IMG/VR virus record: IMGVR_UViG_3300010885_066780
DNA length: 64,000 nt
Strand: one strand, 5' to 3'
Source: an uncultured virus (IMG/VR IMGVR_UViG_3300010885_066780)
Lineage: Duplodnaviria > Heunggongvirae > Uroviricota > Caudoviricetes
The notes under the pieces are model-generated. The model was not told the DNA's origin. It saw only the letters and a list, made by a program, of their open reading frames with translations, and made no database searches. Position numbers and translations under genes: made by a program. Numbering within the stretch: position 1 is the stretch's first letter; every line of letters starts with the position of its first letter. Below, in pieces: positions 11,156 through 62,411 of this stretch.

Positions 11156-11611
11156 ATGAGACAATGTCAAGTAGAAGGTTGTTTAAATACTGGGCAACAT
11201 ACTGGAAAGTATAGAACTGATGGCAGCGTGATATACCGTAATCGTTGTAGACAGCATCACGAAGAATTTACCGCTGCTAAACATGGGTTACCAAGTATAA
11301 AACATGTAATGGCAAAGAATGCTGGATTTGATACTGTTTCTGCATTCGTCAATAGTCAACATCCCTATCGAAAGTATAGAAAAGACTATTGTGAAAATGT
11401 GGTTGGATTTTTAGGCTGGCAATGTACAAGCACAATAATTAATCCGGTTCAACTAGATGTTGATCACATCGATGGTAATCCGGAAAATAATGATCCGGAA
11501 AATTTGCAGACTTTGTGTAAAAATTGCCATTCTGTAAAATCACTGCTCAATAAAGATTATTTGACCCCAGGTAGAAAGCGATTGAAACAAATGACATGTG
11601 AGGCCATCTGA
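11156..11611 (+). CDS. HNH endonuclease
   Basis: LDVDHIDGNPENNDPENLQTLCKNCH. Confidence 0.85.
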   Translation: MRQCQVEGCLNTGQHTGKYRTDGSVIYRNRCRQHHEEFTAAKHGLPSIKHVMAKNAGFDTVSAFVNSQHPYRKYRKDYCENVVGFLGWQCTSTIINPVQLDVDHIDGNPENNDPENLQTLCKNCHSVKSLLNKDYLTPGRKRLKQMTCEAI

Positions 11612-39378: not shown

Positions 39379-40698
39379 CATATAATATCTTAAGTATTTA
39401 AGATATCATTACTATTATGATTGAGTCTTTGTTTTTTTCCAAGAGAACTATTTGTACCCTTGTGTGTTTTCTTAGTTAGAGCGCCGAGACCTCTAGTCAA
39501 GATATTACGTGCGGCATTAGTATCTGCGTCGCTGACGTAACCACAATGTACACACACGAAATACTCGCCCCTACGACTATCTGCGTGTACATGCCCGCAT
39601 TCGCTACACCTCTGCGAGGTATAGGCAGGATTTATCCGAAATACATGAACGTCATGTTCAGCAGCTAACTCCTCTATCCGGTTGTTGATATAACTTAAAC
39701 ACCATGCATGGTTTTTATATCCCCAACTTTTACTTGTTTTCATACCAGTTAAATTTTCAGTAATTAAATAATCAATAGCATCAAAATTAATATCTCTCTT
39801 TAACGAGTAATTGATTTCATTACGTAAAAAATTTCTAGCTCGTTTTTGTGCTTTACTACCGTGTTTCTTTGAAGCAACAATATCCATGATTTGATCAATT
39901 GGCAATCCCCTTTTATGAGTTGTTTCCATATGACCATCATCTCTAGCAATCAACTTTTTTCTACCAATGTCAATTGCTTGAATCTTAGTTATGTCATTAC
40001 CGGTATTAATTGGTTTGTGAAAATAAAATCCCAGTGATCCATCATTATTCACACGTAACGAATTGGTTTTTAAAACAAATCCCCTGTCAATTAATTTTTT
40101 CATATGACGCGTTAACACAAGCGGAATATAAAAATTGCCTCTCATGAAAGAAGTTATTTTAATCCAATATTCACAAATAGTTGTATCTTTTGATTTTTCT
40201 ATTGAAATAAATCTTGAATCCAGTTCAATATTAACACTTTTTATATCAATTTGTAATAGGCCCGAATTATATTTTTCCAATATCTCTCTTTGATATTTTT
40301 TTAAATTTGTTGCGTTTTTAGCTAACTTGACTTTATCTGTAATAGATCTAGCTATTGCTACTGCTTGTTTGGCTAGAACTTGGCTCATTCGAGCAGGAAA
40401 TGGCAATGCTGCAACTATTTCTTTGGGAAGAAAGTTTGGTATTTGATCAAAATCATATATTAATTGGTTGATTAATATATGCAATTCAAATTTATATAAG
40501 TCGAAAGGAGTAGTCAAACGTGTTTGTTTCCCAGTATTCGCCAATACGGGATTATAATTACTAATGCGGATATTGTTTTTATTGGGTTTCTTCGCCATTA
40601 GTCAATTCCAACTATTTTTTGTCCATAACTTTATGTTTCGTACTTGTATTTATACTAGAAATATAGTATTATTTGCGATATGAATGAAAATAAATAAT
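39379..40698 (-). mobile_element. TnpB-only (IS1341-like) insertion element
   Basis: Boundaries inferred from the restored HTH reading frame (about 3-nt AAT ambiguity); no tnpA. Confidence 0.65.
39390..40598 (-). CDS. tnpB: TnpB RNA-guided endonuclease
   Basis: RuvC I AIDIG, RuvC II TENL, NPAYTSQRCS.CG...F.C..CG...DAD.NAARNI. Confidence 0.9.
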   Translation of the reverse strand: MAKKPNKNNIRISNYNPVLANTGKQTRLTTPFDLYKFELHILINQLIYDFDQIPNFLPKEIVAALPFPARMSQVLAKQAVAIARSITDKVKLAKNATNLKKYQREILEKYNSGLLQIDIKSVNIELDSRFISIEKSKDTTICEYWIKITSFMRGNFYIPLVLTRHMKKLIDRGFVLKTNSLRVNNDGSLGFYFHKPINTGNDITKIQAIDIGRKKLIARDDGHMETTHKRGLPIDQIMDIVASKKHGSKAQKRARNFLRNEINYSLKRDINFDAIDYLITENLTGMKTSKSWGYKNHAWCLSYINNRIEELAAEHDVHVFRINPAYTSQRCSECGHVHADSRRGEYFVCVHCGYVSDADTNAARNILTRGLGALTKKTHKGTNSSLGKKQRLNHNSNDILNT

Positions 40699-44812: not shown

Positions 44813-44886
44813 TGGTACCCGATGGTGGTTACGCTCCACCTTCTCTGTCGAGTCAGGACAGTGTTCTGCTACTCTACTAATCGGGG
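44813..44886 (-). tRNA. tRNA-Val(GAC), atypical (weak D arm, AGCGTAA T-loop)
   Basis: CTGTC-CTGACTC-GACAG anticodon arm, CCA; 5' end overlaps the stop of the upstream ORF. Confidence 0.65.
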
Positions 44887-45532: not shown

Positions 45533-45682
45533 TGGTGGACAGCAAGGGAATCGAACCCTTCCTCGTAGAATGCCTTATGGAGATTCTGGATTTGCACCAT
45601 CGCAGGCTATTTTCTGCGTTCTACAATACCGGCGTATCGCTTTCTCCTAAATCTACTGTGCTACCACTATCACTAGCCGCCC
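45533..45682 (-). tRNA. tRNA-Ala with a 75-nt structured insert in the anticodon loop (GGC or TGC after removal)
   Basis: GGGCGGC/GCTGTCC acceptor with G3:U70, normal D and T arms, GTAGA/TCTAC anticodon stem enclosing 82 nt, A-CCA end. Confidence 0.8.
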
Positions 45683-45693
45683 ATTAAAAATTT

Positions 45694-45770
45694 TGGCGCC
45701 CCATGAGAAATTCGAATTCCCGACCCTTGGTTCCGAAGACCAATGCTCTGATCCACTGAGCTAATGAGGC
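45694..45770 (-). tRNA. tRNA-Arg(TCG)
   Basis: TTGGT-CTTCGGA-ACCAA, A20 in the D loop, CCA. Confidence 0.9.
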
Positions 45771-47839: not shown

Positions 47840-47912
47840 TGGAGCGAATGCTGGTATTCGAAACCAGTGGGTCTGACAGGCAATCGGACTCCTCTCCCAG
47901 GAGGACATTCGC
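47840..47912 (-). tRNA. tRNA-Gly(GCC)
   Basis: GCGAATG/CATTCGC acceptor, U73, loop TTGCCTG, CCA. Confidence 0.8.
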
Positions 47913-47920
47913 ATAAATTA

Positions 47921-48011
47921 TGGAGGATAGCGGAGAGAACGATTCCCATACCATTTGAAAGGTACCAACTGTTTAGCAAACAGCGCCAACCACCCGGTTG
48001 ATTCACTATCC
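47921..48011 (-). tRNA. tRNA-Ser(GCT), 8/4 cloverleaf
   Basis: 8-bp acceptor GGATAGTG/CGCTATCC, 6-bp D stem, TTGCTAA loop, long V arm, 4-bp T stem. Confidence 0.8.
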
Positions 48012-48121
48012 AAATTATTTAAATGTGAACCAAGCTACCAGTCCCCAAAACACACTGGGAATTAATAAACAGATCCACATTCCAATATATCCTTTTTTCA
48101 TATTTTAATTATATGAATTCG

Positions 48122-52332: not shown

Positions 52333-52407
52333 TGGCGCAGATGACCAGGATCGCACTGGCCTAACCCGTTAGACAGACGGGCCTCTTCACTAGATGAGTA
52401 CACCTGC
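52333..52407 (-). tRNA. tRNA-Asp(GTC)
   Basis: CCCGT-CTGTCTA-ACGGG, G73, T-loop TGCGATC. Confidence 0.85.
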
Positions 52408-52415
52408 ATTATAGT

Positions 52416-52509
52416 TGGCGGAGGAAGGGTCGTATTGCACGCCTAACCGGGTCCTAGCCGGTTCTACAGTTTTCAAGACTGTCGTTGGAACTTTCCAACA
52501 TCATCCTCC
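52416..52509 (-). tRNA. tRNA-Ser(TGA), Sec-like D stem, probable 8/4 fold
   Basis: ACAGT-CTTGAAA-ACTGT, GTTGGA/TCCAAC D stem, long V arm, G73. Confidence 0.8.
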
Positions 52510-52988: not shown

Positions 52989-52997
52989 ATAAAAGAT

Positions 52998-53080
52998 TGG
53001 GCTACCGGGGTGGTTCCGCCCCACTTTCGACTGGGTTAAAAGGCCAGCGTCGGACTATCCTGACTATACGATCCCGGTAG
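52998..53080 (-). tRNA. tRNA-Lys(TTT), atypical
   Basis: CTACCGGG/CCCGGTAG acceptor, enlarged D loop, CTTTTAA loop, GGCGGAA T-loop. Confidence 0.7.
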
Positions 53081-53093
53081 ATTTTTTATTTAG

Positions 53094-53270: not shown

Positions 53271-53278
53271 ATATGTAG

Positions 53279-53358
53279 TGGCCCCACCCCGCTGAATTGA
53301 ACAGCGTCCTCGAGTTTTTCAGACTCATGTGCTTACCATGTGAATACACCTGAGTGGG
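53279..53358 (-). tRNA. tRNA-Phe(GAA)
   Basis: TGAGT-CTGAAAA-ACTCG, enlarged D loop, CCA. Confidence 0.8.
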
Positions 53359-53367
53359 AAATTTGAA

Positions 53368-53453: not shown

Positions 53454-53532
53454 TGGGTGCGTCGGTGGGAAATGCTCAACCACGATCTCCGGCATATGAA
53501 ACCGGCGAGATAGACTTCTTCTCTACTACGCA
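53454..53532 (-). tRNA. tRNA-Met(CAT), initiator-like, irregular T arm
   Basis: CCGGT-TTCATAT-GCCGG; 5' end overlaps the GIY-YIG stop codon. Confidence 0.7.
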
Positions 53533-54071
53533 TCATTATTCTTTAGTTTGGTTTCTGATATCTTTTTTCTAATTTCATCAGGAACTACTTTACCGGTTAA
53601 GGCTTTTGCTATTTTTCCTTTAGTTTCTATAGAATGTTTTTTACCGAGACGAGATTGTCTAATCTTTTCTATGGTTTCTGGAGAATGCTTTCGTGATTTA
53701 TACTTAATTCTAGTTTCATCTGTTATGATTCTATCCGAACTTGCATATGCAATCTTTTTCTTAGTAGAATTTGAATGACGCTTCCCCTTAAAGTGTGGAC
53801 CGCCTTCGCCGCCTATACCAAGATTATATGTATCTGTTCTACTGACAAATTCTTCAGTTATTAGTTCTTTTTCTTTGGAATTCATCTCTTCTTCTGTATC
53901 AAAGATGAATAAAACCTCTTTAGAAAATTTTTCTTTACCATATTTCTTAATGGCATCTCTTAAATGCTTTCCAGATCCTAAATAGGAATCATTTGGATCT
54001 TTGGTTTGATGTTTTCCAATATAGATTTTACCATTGATTAGGTTCTTGGTCTGATATATCGTATAGTACAT
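53526..54071 (-). CDS. GIY-YIG homing endonuclease (Seg-like, NUMOD3 repeats)
   Basis: YTIY...NLINGKIYIGKH, YLGSG, YN...GG.G, HS.ET..KI repeats. Confidence 0.9.
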   Translation of the reverse strand: MYYTIYQTKNLINGKIYIGKHQTKDPNDSYLGSGKHLRDAIKKYGKEKFSKEVLFIFDTEEEMNSKEKELITEEFVSRTDTYNLGIGGEGGPHFKGKRHSNSTKKKIAYASSDRIITDETRIKYKSRKHSPETIEKIRQSRLGKKHSIETKGKIAKALTGKVVPDEIRKKISETKLKNNDA

Positions 54072-54150: not shown

Positions 54151-54236
54151 TGGTCCATCACCTTGGATCCGCCCCAAGTATGCCCGAAGGCGCTCGATTT
54201 ACAGTCGAGTCCAGTCTCTCATGCCGGTCGTGATGG
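54151..54236 (-). tRNA. tRNA-Tyr(GTA)
   Basis: CTCGA-CTGTAAA-TCGAG, V arm GCC-TTCG-GGC, C1:G72, T-loop GGCGGAT. Confidence 0.85.
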
Positions 54237-55410: not shown

Positions 55411-55680
55411 CTACCAATACGTAAATTTAAAAATGTAAATTTTATAAAATTTTATTACCTTTTTTCTATTTTCTGATTTAGTTAGGTATTGTAAGTTTGA
55501 AATAGAATGCAACCCTCCTTTGGATATAGGGATAATATGATCGACCTCATATCCTTCGGGACAAGCTTCATAAAATTTTTTAATTGCTGAAAGATCTTCG
55601 TCATGTGGAGTATTATATTTCTTTTTGGCATTATATCTCGCCCATGCTTCTCGTTTGATACCTCGCGTGTGTTCTTTTGA
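55411..55680 (-). pseudogene. HNH endonuclease C-terminal fragment
   Basis: CP.GYEVDHIIP.SKGGLH...NLQYLT..EN; sequence upstream of about 55680 is the antisense of another gene. Confidence 0.7.
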
Positions 55681-55886
55681 TACCTTGGGTAGATTCCAAT
55701 AATAAAAATAGAAAATATTTTCCGGATTTTTACCTACCAAAATATGATCTTTATTTAGATCCAAAAAATGATTACCAAATAAAGATTGGTCAAGAAAAGT
55801 TAGATTGTGTTTCAAACAAAATTCATCTAATTTATGGTCGAGTTGAATATATTCAACAATATATTTTGAATATCATGACCAGTTAA
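55677..55886 (+). pseudogene. PD-(D/E)xK nuclease C-terminal fragment
   Basis: IPW.D....RKYFPDFYLP.YD.YLDPKN. Confidence 0.7.
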
Positions 55887-58234: not shown

Positions 58235-58279
58235 AGCAAATCCTTTTATTATCCACTATTTATACCAAAATATAAAAAT

Positions 58280-58379: not shown

Positions 58380-58453
58380 TGGCCACCGCACCTGGAATCA
58401 AACCAAGATCATCTGTTTTGGAGACAGAGGCCCTATCATTGGACGATACGGTA
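58380..58453 (-). tRNA. tRNA-Trp(CCA)
   Basis: TCTGT-CTCCAAA-ACAGA, G73, CCA. Confidence 0.85.
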
Positions 58454-58472
58454 GCATAAAATATTTCTAAAC

Positions 58473-58646
58473 GCAGGAGTTGTTAATTCCCACTATCGCT
58501 ATCACCGGCCTTGGCCAGTAATAGTTGCGCCTTTTTCCTACCCAATTGTAACTCAACAATTCACATTGCCCAATTGGGAATCCATCCGCTATGCCGGTAA
58601 CATTTCGCTTTGTCTGCAGGCTGGTTACTCGCCTTTTTAGTCCTGT
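58473..58646 (-). ncRNA. putative about 175-nt multi-stem ncRNA
   Basis: Closing stem CAGGA/TCCTG; hairpins GTAAC/GTTAC, CCCAATTG/CAATTGGG, CTATTACTGGC/GCCGGTGATAG. Confidence 0.5.
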
Positions 58647-58705
58647 TAAATTCTATCTATCCACCACTATTCATATTTCTACCTTGCTCCTATGTTTCAG
58701 GTAAT

Positions 58706-58732
58706 AAAAAACCCCGGATTTTTGATCCGAGG
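58706..58732 (-). terminator. intrinsic terminator (attenuator) upstream of the tRNA/ncRNA array
   Basis: CCTCGGAT-CAAAA-ATCCGGGG-TTTTTT. Confidence 0.8.
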
Positions 58733-58787
58733 CCTGTAAAATTTGATTTTTGAAGTTTCAGCTTCTTATTTCAAATTTTGGGGCCTC
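58729..58787 (-). promoter_or_regulatory. putative antiterminator hairpin
   Basis: GAGGCC-CC-AAAATTTGA pairs with TCAAATTTT-ACA-GGCCTC and sequesters the CCTC of the terminator 5' arm. Confidence 0.65.
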
Positions 58788-58899
58788 CAGAACCACGCTC
58801 AAAATTGGGTTGATTTGAGCCAAACTGACGCACGCTTGGGCTGGTCACGGACCAATCCAGATAGGCGAGTTCAAATTTTGGTTTCATAATCAGTGTCAT
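58771..58899 (-). CDS. putative 42-aa leader peptide
   Basis: MTLIMKPKFELAYLDWSVTSPSVRQFGSNQPNFERGSGGPKI*; AAAGGA 12 nt upstream; stop codon lies inside the antiterminator 5' arm. Confidence 0.6.
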   Translation of the reverse strand: MTLIMKPKFELAYLDWSVTSPSVRQFGSNQPNFERGSGGPKI

Positions 58900-58929
58900 T
58901 GAAGTTTCAGTTCCTTTGTTTGTTCGATC

Positions 58930-58965
58930 TATTTATGCCTGTTCTTGAATTCAAAGTCAAGAACA
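58930..58965 (-). promoter_or_regulatory. promoter of the leader/tRNA array (ATAAATA late motif plus TTGACT -35-like hexamer, 9-bp inverted repeat)
   Basis: ATAAATA at 58930-58936; tgttcttga-N8-tcaagaaca at 58940-58965. Confidence 0.5.
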
Positions 58966-59048
58966 AAAATTATTTTTCTAAATTTTTCTAATCTTCGAAA
59001 AATCTACTACTATTTATACCACCAGTTCAGTTGAGTGTCAACCGATCA

Positions 59049-59294
59049 TTAAATATGATATGCAATATCTTCCCAATCATCTTGGGACATGCTGAGATAA
59101 TCCATTTCGGTATACCCAAGCCTGTCAATTCCGTTTCCGCAGCCAACATAGTTCCCATCTTGATCAACTCCGGAATAACCATAGCTATCATATCCTTCGG
59201 AATCATAATCAGCCATATGTTGCTTAGACATATAGGCCACGTTCAACGCTCCGTTGTTTGTGTTCGTATCAATACAATAACAGGTACAAGGCAT
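59049..59294 (-). CDS. small acidic hypothetical protein with GYD repeats
   Basis: YDSEGYDSYGY, GIDRLGY. Confidence 0.55.
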   Translation of the reverse strand: MPCTCYCIDTNTNNGALNVAYMSKQHMADYDSEGYDSYGYSGVDQDGNYVGCGNGIDRLGYTEMDYLSMSQDDWEDIAYHI

Positions 59295-62259: not shown

Positions 62260-62411
62260 GACGTCAAATCCTTGTGCAATCTCTTTGTCTATCATACAAG
62301 TTTTTGAAAAGTTGTCAAGAGTGATCTTTGAACAGCATAAATAAATTAGATAGTTGTGGCGGAAATCGACCACAACTCAAAAACCCTTCAGCAGAAAGTG
62401 ATTGAAACAAA

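Follow-up and report, generated by a model that had tools for sequence, protein, structure and literature searches.

Leader-peptide attenuators are best known from amino-acid operons (trp, his, leu, thr, pheA, ilv), a class described by Yanofsky and others; its multivalent members, such as those of ilvGMEDA and thr, carry codons for two or three amino acids in clustered runs. In Firmicutes, Term-seq has found antibiotic-responsive attenuators, in which stalling leader open reading frames (ORFs) and terminators gate resistance genes and respond to drugs. The transfer RNA (tRNA) genes of phages are usually viewed as passive helpers in codon usage or as substitutes for tRNAs that host defences have removed. 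Full-text literature searches returned no description of leader-peptide control of tRNA genes. We use an entirely computational analysis to study an element that lies upstream of a tRNA-Trp gene in an uncultured lake phage, in a stretch of 64,000 nucleotides (nt) that forms part of the genome IMGVR_UViG_3300010885_066780 of IMG/VR and is called the window below. On balance we think it probable that this element is a ribosome-mediated leader-peptide transcription attenuator, belonging to a family that stands before tRNA genes in freshwater jumbo phages.

The core parts follow one another on the minus strand, ahead of the gene that they would control:

58771..58899, minus strand: leader ORF, 42 codons plus the stop UGA, MTLIMKPKFELAYLDWSVTSPSVRQFGSNQPNFERGSGGPKI
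58729..58787, minus strand: predicted antiterminator hairpin, 5' arm GAGGCC-CC-AAAAUUUGA (58787-58771) and 3' arm UCAAAUUUU-ACA-GGCCUC (58746-58729)
58706..58732, minus strand: predicted intrinsic terminator, CCUCGGAU-CAAAA-AUCCGGGG (58732-58712) followed by U6 (58711-58706)
58454..58705, minus strand: spacer of 252 nt between terminator and tRNA
58380..58453, minus strand: tRNA-Trp (CCA), the first tRNA downstream of the leader

A preliminary description of the locus, made from the sequence letters, had listed a promoter motif, a Shine-Dalgarno (SD)-like AAAGGA, a 42-codon ORF, a hairpin covering the stop codon and a terminator that shares CCUC with this hairpin, and on reading the minus strand we find all of them present as described. 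It had also placed a tRNA array directly downstream. The tRNA-Trp gene does follow the leader, but the array is not a compact one: the tRNAs are dispersed across 24 kb among ORFs (13 by default ARAGORN, scattered over 34.5-58.5 kb among ORFs of both strands, to which Rfam and relaxed ARAGORN add more).

Two predicted hairpins share sequence and are mutually exclusive, with the stop codon of the leader placed inside one of them. The 5' arm of the long hairpin covers the last codons and the stop, UGA at 58773-58771 being the final triplet of the arm, and CCUC is common to the long hairpin and the terminator. Taken alone the terminator is predicted at -11.7 kcal/mol, and when the upstream arm is masked through the stop codon it forms 11 pairs (including G-U) at -14.3 kcal/mol. 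The antiterminator together with a stub of 4 base pairs (bp) reaches -18.6 kcal/mol, against -15.8 kcal/mol for the terminator with an inner A/U stem, and in a 105-nt context the minimum free energy (MFE) is -29.3 versus -25.0 with the terminator forced, an advantage of about 3-4 kcal/mol for the antiterminator. When the RNA is folded from the predicted transcript start, the antiterminator pairs form with a probability of 0.88-0.96 and the terminator with 0.04; across nine 5' ends tried, the terminator probability is at most 0.28 in eight. The native upstream sequence removes the terminator from the MFE fold in three of four contexts, an outcome given by 8, 14, 11 and 18 of 300 dinucleotide shuffles (3-6%). 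The proposed competition between hairpin and terminator is thereby upheld, since folding predicts termination only when the 5' arm of the hairpin is masked; the placement of the stop codon is a test of geometry only, in which masking through the stop yields the 11-bp terminator.

The terminator itself ranks first among terminator-like sites in a scan of 44-64 kb (11 pairs, 5 of them G-C) and outranks the sites of 24-44 kb, and it is the better of the two strict terminators on the minus strand of the whole window. It sits after two promoters and not before them, as a terminator does in a leader and not at the end of an operon. The folds of the whole transcript (z-score -1.64) and of the spacer (z-score -1.45) are both unremarkable, and with an E-value limit of 1 no Rfam covariance model matches anywhere in 58454-59050. 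The apical part of the antiterminator hairpin repeats the ribosome-binding-site (RBS) motif CUGAAACUUCAA (58761-58750).

Further evidence comes from related jumbo phages, which we reached through the neighbouring helicase (G001-G004) and through a spacer pattern (G005 and G006); these are our labels for IMG/VR records, as L-numbers are for retrieved loci. G001, G002 and G003 have 45-54 tRNAs each and G004 has three. We surveyed 61 tRNAs with at least 400 nt free upstream for three features: a strong terminator, with its stem ending 167-255 nt before the tRNA, an ATG ORF of 32-43 codons ending just upstream, and a (C/T)ATAAATAG promoter. All three occur together at 4 of the 61 tRNAs (Trp of the window, His of G001, His and Val of G002), each of them among the nine major array heads, and further units are found as G006 His and G005 A. 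The layout in the relatives runs from the promoter TATAAATAG through an ORF of 32-43 codons to the terminator, then a gap of 167-218 nt from terminator stem to first tRNA, and that tRNA; the window agrees with ATAAATAG, 42 codons and a gap of 255 nt, likewise measured from the terminator stem. The check that had been proposed for the locus, a search for the same ORF, antiterminator and terminator before the tRNA arrays of relatives, thus has a positive outcome in G001, G002, G005 and G006.

In these relatives, too, part of the leader ORF, internal or terminal, is complementary to the 5' arm of the terminator. The segment is CCCUCAGU in G001, G002 and G006, CUUCCAGG in the homologous leader of G005, and CCCGAGUU in G002 Val, there overlapping the final codons together with the stop. 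Across units it co-varies with the terminator: the lower stem, common to the in-ORF segment, is invariant, and the upper stem co-varies (AGC/GCU versus UUCC/GGAA). In a duplex test with 1000 shuffles per unit, the shuffles that reach the native pairing number 0, 2 and 8 in the three His-type units, 54 in G005 and 72 in G002 Val. One more candidate, the Val head of G001, is doubtful: its 24-codon ORF is weakly matched, with 14/23 codons for its own array versus 9/23 for the other, and its terminator arm fails the duplex test (941/1000); we left it out of the count.

The relatives' leaders are spelled in the codons of the array that they precede and avoid the codons of the other array. We count as matched any codon that the default ARAGORN tRNAs of an array can read by strict wobble, over the codons before the switch (the first 33, or the first 28 for G002 Val), and compare each leader with background windows:

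G002 His leader: own array 33/33, other array 7/33; background windows reaching the own value 0/20000
G006 His leader: own array 31/33, other array 6/33; background 0/20000
G005 A leader: own array 24/33, other array 2/33; background 0/20000
G001 His leader: own array 26/33, other array 8/33; background 21/20000
G002 Val leader: own array 26/28, other array 4/28; background 0/20000

Because the three His-type leaders are homologues, these rows amount to about three independent cases of codon matching and not five. As a separate observation on the His-type leaders, their RBS region ACUGAGG repeats the 5' arm of the terminator (in G001 at L083 1582-1589, 1702-1709 and 1754-1781; likewise in L084 and L156), and in the MFE fold this region pairs with the in-ORF CCCUCAGU, which gives a trp-like set of 1:2, 2:3 and 3:4 pairings whose segment 1 is the ribosome-binding site. 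The relatives also have tRNAs with a CUA anticodon, called 'Pyl' by ARAGORN (G001 124199 and 126682; G002 333621; G005, L155 3001), which may be amber suppressors and may hint at stop-codon reassignment.

The units of the relatives would be homologous or analogous to that of the window; how might they be tied to it? One likeness is in the region of ribosome binding, and a second lies within the ORF:

58900..58917, minus strand: ribosome-binding region, AAAGGA (58917-58912) plus ACTGAAACTTCA (58911-58900)
58839..58858, minus strand: mid-ORF hairpin, GGAUUGGUC-CGU-GACCAGCC, present in predicted folds

The 12 nt before the leader ATG, ACTGAAACTTCA, agree at 11 of 12 positions with the corresponding stretch of the G006 His-array leader, an identity reached by 0 of 15120 control pairs of gene starts. 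The motif ACTTCAATG occurs once in the window and four times in 213 kb of relatives, where two of the four are leaders. The pattern ACTGARACTTCAATG for this RBS has at least 117 matches; among the matches listed a tRNA lies downstream of one only, that of G006. Besides the RBS, the units agree in ORF length (42 versus 40-43 codons), in the promoter motif, in the distance to the first tRNA and in a mid-ORF hairpin CUGG...CCAG. This hairpin, which in the window contains the sole Trp codon (58854-58852), appears in the relatives as CUGGCAA..UUGCCAG at a similar codon position (CTGGCAA.A.TGCCAG is invariant), and it may act as a pause hairpin. Aligned by MAFFT, the units of the window and of G001 gave a meaningless result.

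Natural variation in the window's own unit was sampled in one diverged relative (L081) and one contig variant (from run X3), besides the identical L074, and gives three haplotypes: the window itself with L074, L081 (93.8% over 679 nt including the unit) and the X3 contig. The leader ORF is intact in all three, and the hairpin arms and terminator are unchanged in all three. Over the 255 nt from the -35 of the nearer promoter, P2, to the U-tract, L081 has 11 substitutions: the ORF takes 6 of them, the 5' untranslated region 3 and the apical loop 2. The three isolated substitutions in the ORF are all synonymous third-position changes (AAT>AAC, CGT>CGC, GGT>GGA), two of which recur in X3; the remaining cluster of 3 nt turns Ser-Val into Ile-Ala. 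An ORF read on the antisense strand, unlike the leader ORF, takes amino-acid changes in L081. This pattern gives modest support to translation of the leader. L081 is also predicted to fold like the window. An extension of the antiterminator stem by UGGUUC/GGAUCA was dropped, its pairing being broken by L081 substitutions.

The haplotypes also differ beyond the unit. The tRNA-Trp slot (window 58380-58457; L081 2054-3011) is exchanged as a cassette, with conserved flanks on both sides: in L081 it holds another tRNA-Trp(CCA) and an opposite-strand ORF of 289 amino acids (aa), and in the X3 contig 73 nt are replaced by 94 other letters. The 289-aa ORF was considered as an HNH homing endonuclease, for which Pfam gives only a zinc finger below cut-off. 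The 58 nt directly after the terminator (58643-58700) are hypervariable in X3, with about 18 substitutions and 4 insertions or deletions, and their flanks differ by less than 2%.

Two promoters, both sigma-70-like and both read from the sequence, stand upstream of the leader:

59010..59041, minus strand: promoter P1, TTGACA (59041-59036), 17 nt, TATAAA (59018-59013)
58966..58991, minus strand: A/T-rich stretch between P1 and P2, directly upstream of the P2 -35, with the tandem repeat TTAGAAAAAT x2 (58972-58991)
58929..58965, minus strand: promoter P2, TTGACT (58960-58955), 17-nt spacer, CATAAA (58937-58932)

P2 is identical in L081. Its CATAAA overlaps the phage motif ATAAATAG (58936-58929), its -35 lies inside a palindrome with 12-nt arms (58940-58965), and we take the A/T-rich stretch above it to be UP-element-like. 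A consensus promoter scan passes P2 over because it demands T at position 6. P1, a second promoter upstream of P2, was not part of the preliminary description; its -10 is preceded by TGg and overlaps ATAAATAG (59017-59010), and its -35 is shifted in position and retained in L081. The motif ATAAATA(G), or ATAAATAG, which resembles the T4 late promoter, also precedes many start codons by 3-30 nt, oriented as the gene is (1799, 2409, 4438, 7446, 8085, 30520, 39221, 42999, 47465, 49456/49458, 58263 and others). The placement is striking, and the total is not above expectation (38 found versus about 34 expected); several of these sites would yield leaderless or nearly leaderless messenger RNAs (mRNAs). 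No other ATAAATA site of the window has TTGAC at 17 nt except a divergent one at 62337.

Putting these parts together, we propose that transcripts begin at P2, begin at P1 or arrive from the upstream operon, and that all of them carry the 42-codon ORF, which would be translated. With prompt translation, a ribosome at the stop codon would cover GAGGCC-CC-AAAAUUUGA and leave the 3' arm free, the terminator of 8-11 bp would form and transcription would end at 58706. Without a ribosome, or with one that lags or has stalled before about codon 32, the long hairpin would form first and hold CCUC; only the 4-bp stub GGAU/AUCC, set apart from the U-tract, would then remain, and the polymerase would read into the spacer and tRNA-Trp. 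Transcripts from P2 would in this way supply tRNA-Trp, and the terminator would be a functional and switchable one in the cell. Output of the downstream tRNA would rise with slow decoding and fall with fast decoding, and we therefore propose that the unit exerts feedback on translation capacity. A specific Trp sensor was considered and given up, there being a single UGG codon, which ahead of tRNA-Trp is not significant; any stall upstream of about codon 32 would act alike, and so sensing of Trp in particular is unsupported.

A number of results weigh against this attenuator reading. In the window itself, a transcript starting at 58832 favours the terminator (0.80), and the duplex-only test of the 8-nt terminator 5' arm against the upstream sequence is matched by 360 of 1000 shuffles and is not significant. 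The distance from AAAGGA to the ATG is 12 nt, against 5-8 nt in SD-type genes of the same phage; the leader has no run of any codon; and its 42-aa peptide has no homologue beyond its own cluster. The codon test that succeeds in the relatives does not succeed here: 15 of 41 leader codons are readable by the 13 default tRNAs, compared with 24-33 of 33 (or 26 of 28) there, and 9202 of 20000 background windows reach this value (14.4 +/- 3.1). No matching tRNA was detected in the window for the Ile, Pro and Phe codons or for GGA and ACA. The tRNA catalogue of the window is visibly incomplete, which makes this test a weak one, and its outcome as it stands is negative; with relaxed-threshold tRNAs added, 21/41 leader codons become readable, and with four-way wobble as well 27/41, at 44 readable codons.

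The ties to the relatives have their own gaps, which count on the same side. The unit layout is absent at the G003 and G004 heads and before the arrays of L113, L143 and L144. BLASTP and local DNA alignment of the leader peptide and spacer against G001 give no significant similarity, and the conserved element of the relatives' spacers, GGACCGC..GAGUGCGAUAAAGG, is not found in the window by nhmmer at E up to 10, nor does the covariance model R1 match 58454-58705 at E up to 10; a likeness that we had seen by eye between the window spacer and that element is accordingly not borne out by either. In the relatives the equilibrium fold is the terminator (P about 1) and not the antiterminator, and for this reason a kinetic competition has to be assumed there. 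The E. coli trp leader depends on kinetic competition likewise.

What the leader might sense, and how far its control might reach, have also to be drawn more narrowly than the preliminary description drew them. Its counts for the leader are correct: 28 distinct sense codons and 18 amino acids, with Cys and His missing. As a signal, this breadth does not hold up, since it is ordinary, with 3537 of 20000 background windows reaching the amino-acid diversity and 5938 of 20000 the codon diversity. It follows that the coincidence of Cys and His, absent both from the leader and from the tRNA set, carries no weight. The suggested control over the rest of the tRNA array is likewise doubtful. The 770-aa gene directly after tRNA-Trp has its own ATAAATAG at 58263 and the tRNA-Arg at 45770 has the motif 8 nt upstream, both of which speak against an attenuator that governs everything downstream; we regard its control as doubtful beyond tRNA-Trp.

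Several other accounts of the locus each fit part of these data. The unit could be a self-contained, moron-like small-gene cassette, in which a strong early promoter drives a 42-aa gene with its own constitutive terminator, the hairpin being incidental or stabilising the 3' end of the mRNA, and tRNA-Trp is made by leakage or otherwise. An ORF kept intact, with only synonymous isolated changes across three haplotypes, is what a real protein gene would show; the His-type leader peptides of the relatives are conserved at the amino-acid level, including a synonymous AGA/CGA change, which goes beyond the needs of classical leaders. The other strict terminator (36157-36138) precedes a gene start by 10 nt, and leaky termination within operons thus seems to be usual here. 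T4-type phages have promoter-plus-stem-loop (PeSL) cassettes around small ORFs (PMC2839356, PMC4122927). We nevertheless consider this account unlikely. A constitutive terminator would not be expected to be out-competed in the predicted fold of the naked RNA, a property which is rare in shuffles (3-6%) and kept in L081, nor would the stop codon be expected to fall exactly within the competing arm. The recurrence at the heads of the relatives' arrays, with codon matching, is left unexplained, the peptide has no homologues, and the window has no second copy of the promoter and hairpin motif, whereas PeSL motifs are repeated. A second possibility is that the terminator merely insulates: it would end the upstream helicase/HD/81-aa operon and the transcripts of P1 and P2, tRNA-Trp and what follows would be transcribed from a promoter in the 252-nt spacer, and the leader ORF would have no regulatory part. 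The spacer does hold weak promoter-like sites (TGGGCA-16-TACAAT at 58572-58545 and TTAACA-17-TATTTT at 58486-58458), other tRNAs and genes have an ATAAATA motif of their own, and in the relatives the gap from terminator to first tRNA holds a conserved element, which is found without any leader as well (L113, L143). However, the spacer sites score 9/12, like many chance sites (89 found versus 61.7 expected in 20 kb), the phage's ATAAATA motif is absent from the spacer, and an insulator is expected before two promoters, not after them. Moreover, 7 of 11 pairs of the relatives' spacer element show compensatory changes, which indicates that the element acts as RNA and is transcribed from upstream, and the matching of leaders to arrays is again unexplained. 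We judge this account to be quite improbable.

The remaining alternative does without translation: the stretch from P2 to the terminator would be a regulatory or structural RNA of roughly 220 nt, and the ORF fortuitous. A promoter and a terminator bound the unit, the SD spacing is poor, internal repeats and hairpins are present, and T4 has stable small RNAs within its tRNA region. Yet in an untranslated transcript the terminator is predicted to stay unformed (P about 0.04), the overall fold of this RNA is not unusually stable and it belongs to no Rfam family. The three isolated substitutions, all at third positions, and the amino-acid changes in the antisense ORF also argue for a translated reading frame, as do the ORF length and the RBS shared with the leaders of the relatives; a non-coding RNA is in our estimate very improbable. 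None of these three accounts explains both a competing fold placed on the stop codon and the codon-matched recurrence at array heads of relatives.

If the attenuator reading is right, a wider one suggests itself, which we advance tentatively, as a serious possibility rather than an expectation. The element would be a member of a widespread and so far unpublished system of phage tRNA control, with a test ORF and a switchable terminator for each tRNA block, the slowness of decoding setting how much of the phage's own tRNA is transcribed. Such a system would be a homeostatic sensor for usable tRNA: it would fire upon degradation of host tRNAs during infection or upon anticodon-nuclease defence and go off once phage tRNAs accumulate. 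In relatives with two arrays each leader would test the codons of its own array; here a single broad leader of 18 amino acids would serve as a general sensor before tRNA-Trp. The phage would then gauge decoding speed and make tRNA on demand, and a textbook bacterial mechanism would gain a new kind of target. It would also provide a testable link between tRNA depletion, for instance by anticodon nucleases, and phage counter-measures. From the relatives we would predict that, on loss of one tRNA set, de-repression is confined to the array whose leader uses the codons concerned.

We now turn to the surroundings. Pfam matches in the window (a clamp loader with a gp44 lid, a UvrD-like helicase, a dCMP deaminase and homing endonucleases) indicate a large T4-related phage. 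The upstream neighbour on the minus strand is the 81-aa gene, which ends at 59049 and is real, having a 71% nucleotide match over 135 nt in Agrobacterium phage Atu_ph07; these 135 nt, inside the 81-aa gene and without synteny, are the only match in the GenBank phage collection. In L081 the same gene is interrupted by an insertion of about 820 nt (L081 560-1380 versus window 59131-59237) with two ORFs, of 104 and 138 aa, that belong to no Pfam family. Scans of IMG/VR gave 3 loci with the HD protein, none of which has tRNAs or synteny, no loci with the 770-aa protein, 26 loci with the helicase, where downstream synteny is absent, and 2 loci with the 81-aa protein. A scan of IMG/VR with the hairpin pattern gave 41 loci, every one of them unrelated by BLAST, and a pattern search of genome contigs gave 0 matches. 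It was the metagenome scan with the 81-aa protein, with 8 loci, that reached the leader, which is covered by L074 (identical) and L081 (about 94%).

Among the tRNAs, those missed at default settings include tRNA-like genes at 44813-44886, 45536-45682, 47840-48012, 52333-52506 and 54151-54236, one of which contains an intron (Rfam; ARAGORN -i: Ala tgc), with relaxed calls for Val, Gly, Ser, Asp and Tyr; by eye, the gaps 53271-53367 and 52989-53093 look like odd Phe(GAA) and Lys(UUU) tRNAs. Scattered among the tRNA genes are a TnpB/Cas12f-like ORF and ORFs for GIY-YIG and HNH homing endonucleases (39390-40598, 53526-54071, 55411-55815, 11156-11611). In the relatives, the conserved structured RNA just upstream of the tRNA arrays consists of GGACCGC, a hairpin with the loop GAGUAGYCUUCA and then GAGUGCGAUAAAGG; the compensatory changes in 7 of its 11 predicted pairs were counted over 8 sequences, and it is seen at L146:739-813, L149:737-811(-), L110, L137, L113, L143, L108 and L128, with or without a leader ORF.

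Finally, we compare the unit with the systems already described. With PeSL cassettes, or morons, of T4-type and other phages it shares a strong sigma-70-like promoter, an A/T-rich upstream region, a terminating stem-loop, a small orphan ORF and a place in a variable region of a T4-related phage. In the PeSLs (PMC2839356, PMC4122927) the stem-loop precedes the promoter and each genome has numerous copies of the motif; the window unit instead runs from promoter through ORF to competing hairpins, and the arrangement recurs at the heads of the relatives' tRNA arrays. The sequence CTGAAACTTCAA matches exactly only within the leader unit in the window and the order of the parts differs, so we rejected membership among the PeSLs.

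There is a likeness, too, to the attenuators of amino-acid operons, of which pheL (PMC3082878) is an example. Here as there, a short leader ORF is followed by an intrinsic terminator and an overlapping antiterminator, and a ribosome at the stop codon would block the antiterminator; the His-type units of the relatives even have the four-segment topology of 1:2, 2:3 and 3:4 pairings with repeated 7-8-mers. The window unit has no segment 1, and its untranslated default would therefore be read-through, unlike that of the amino-acid-operon attenuators. It also differs from them in its target, a phage tRNA gene or array instead of a biosynthetic operon, and in having no run of a single codon, and the leaders of the relatives sample 10-15 amino acids, namely those of the array. 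As in the antibiotic-responsive attenuators of Firmicutes, any stall in the leader would favour the antiterminator and read-through, which amounts to general sensing of the state of translation, whereas the present unit is located in a phage and would gate tRNA genes. Like the multivalent leaders of ilvGMEDA and thr, it would respond to more than one amino-acid or tRNA species; unlike them, the units described here extend to as many as 33 consecutive codons over the whole tRNA set of an array, and to 18 amino acids in the leader of the window.

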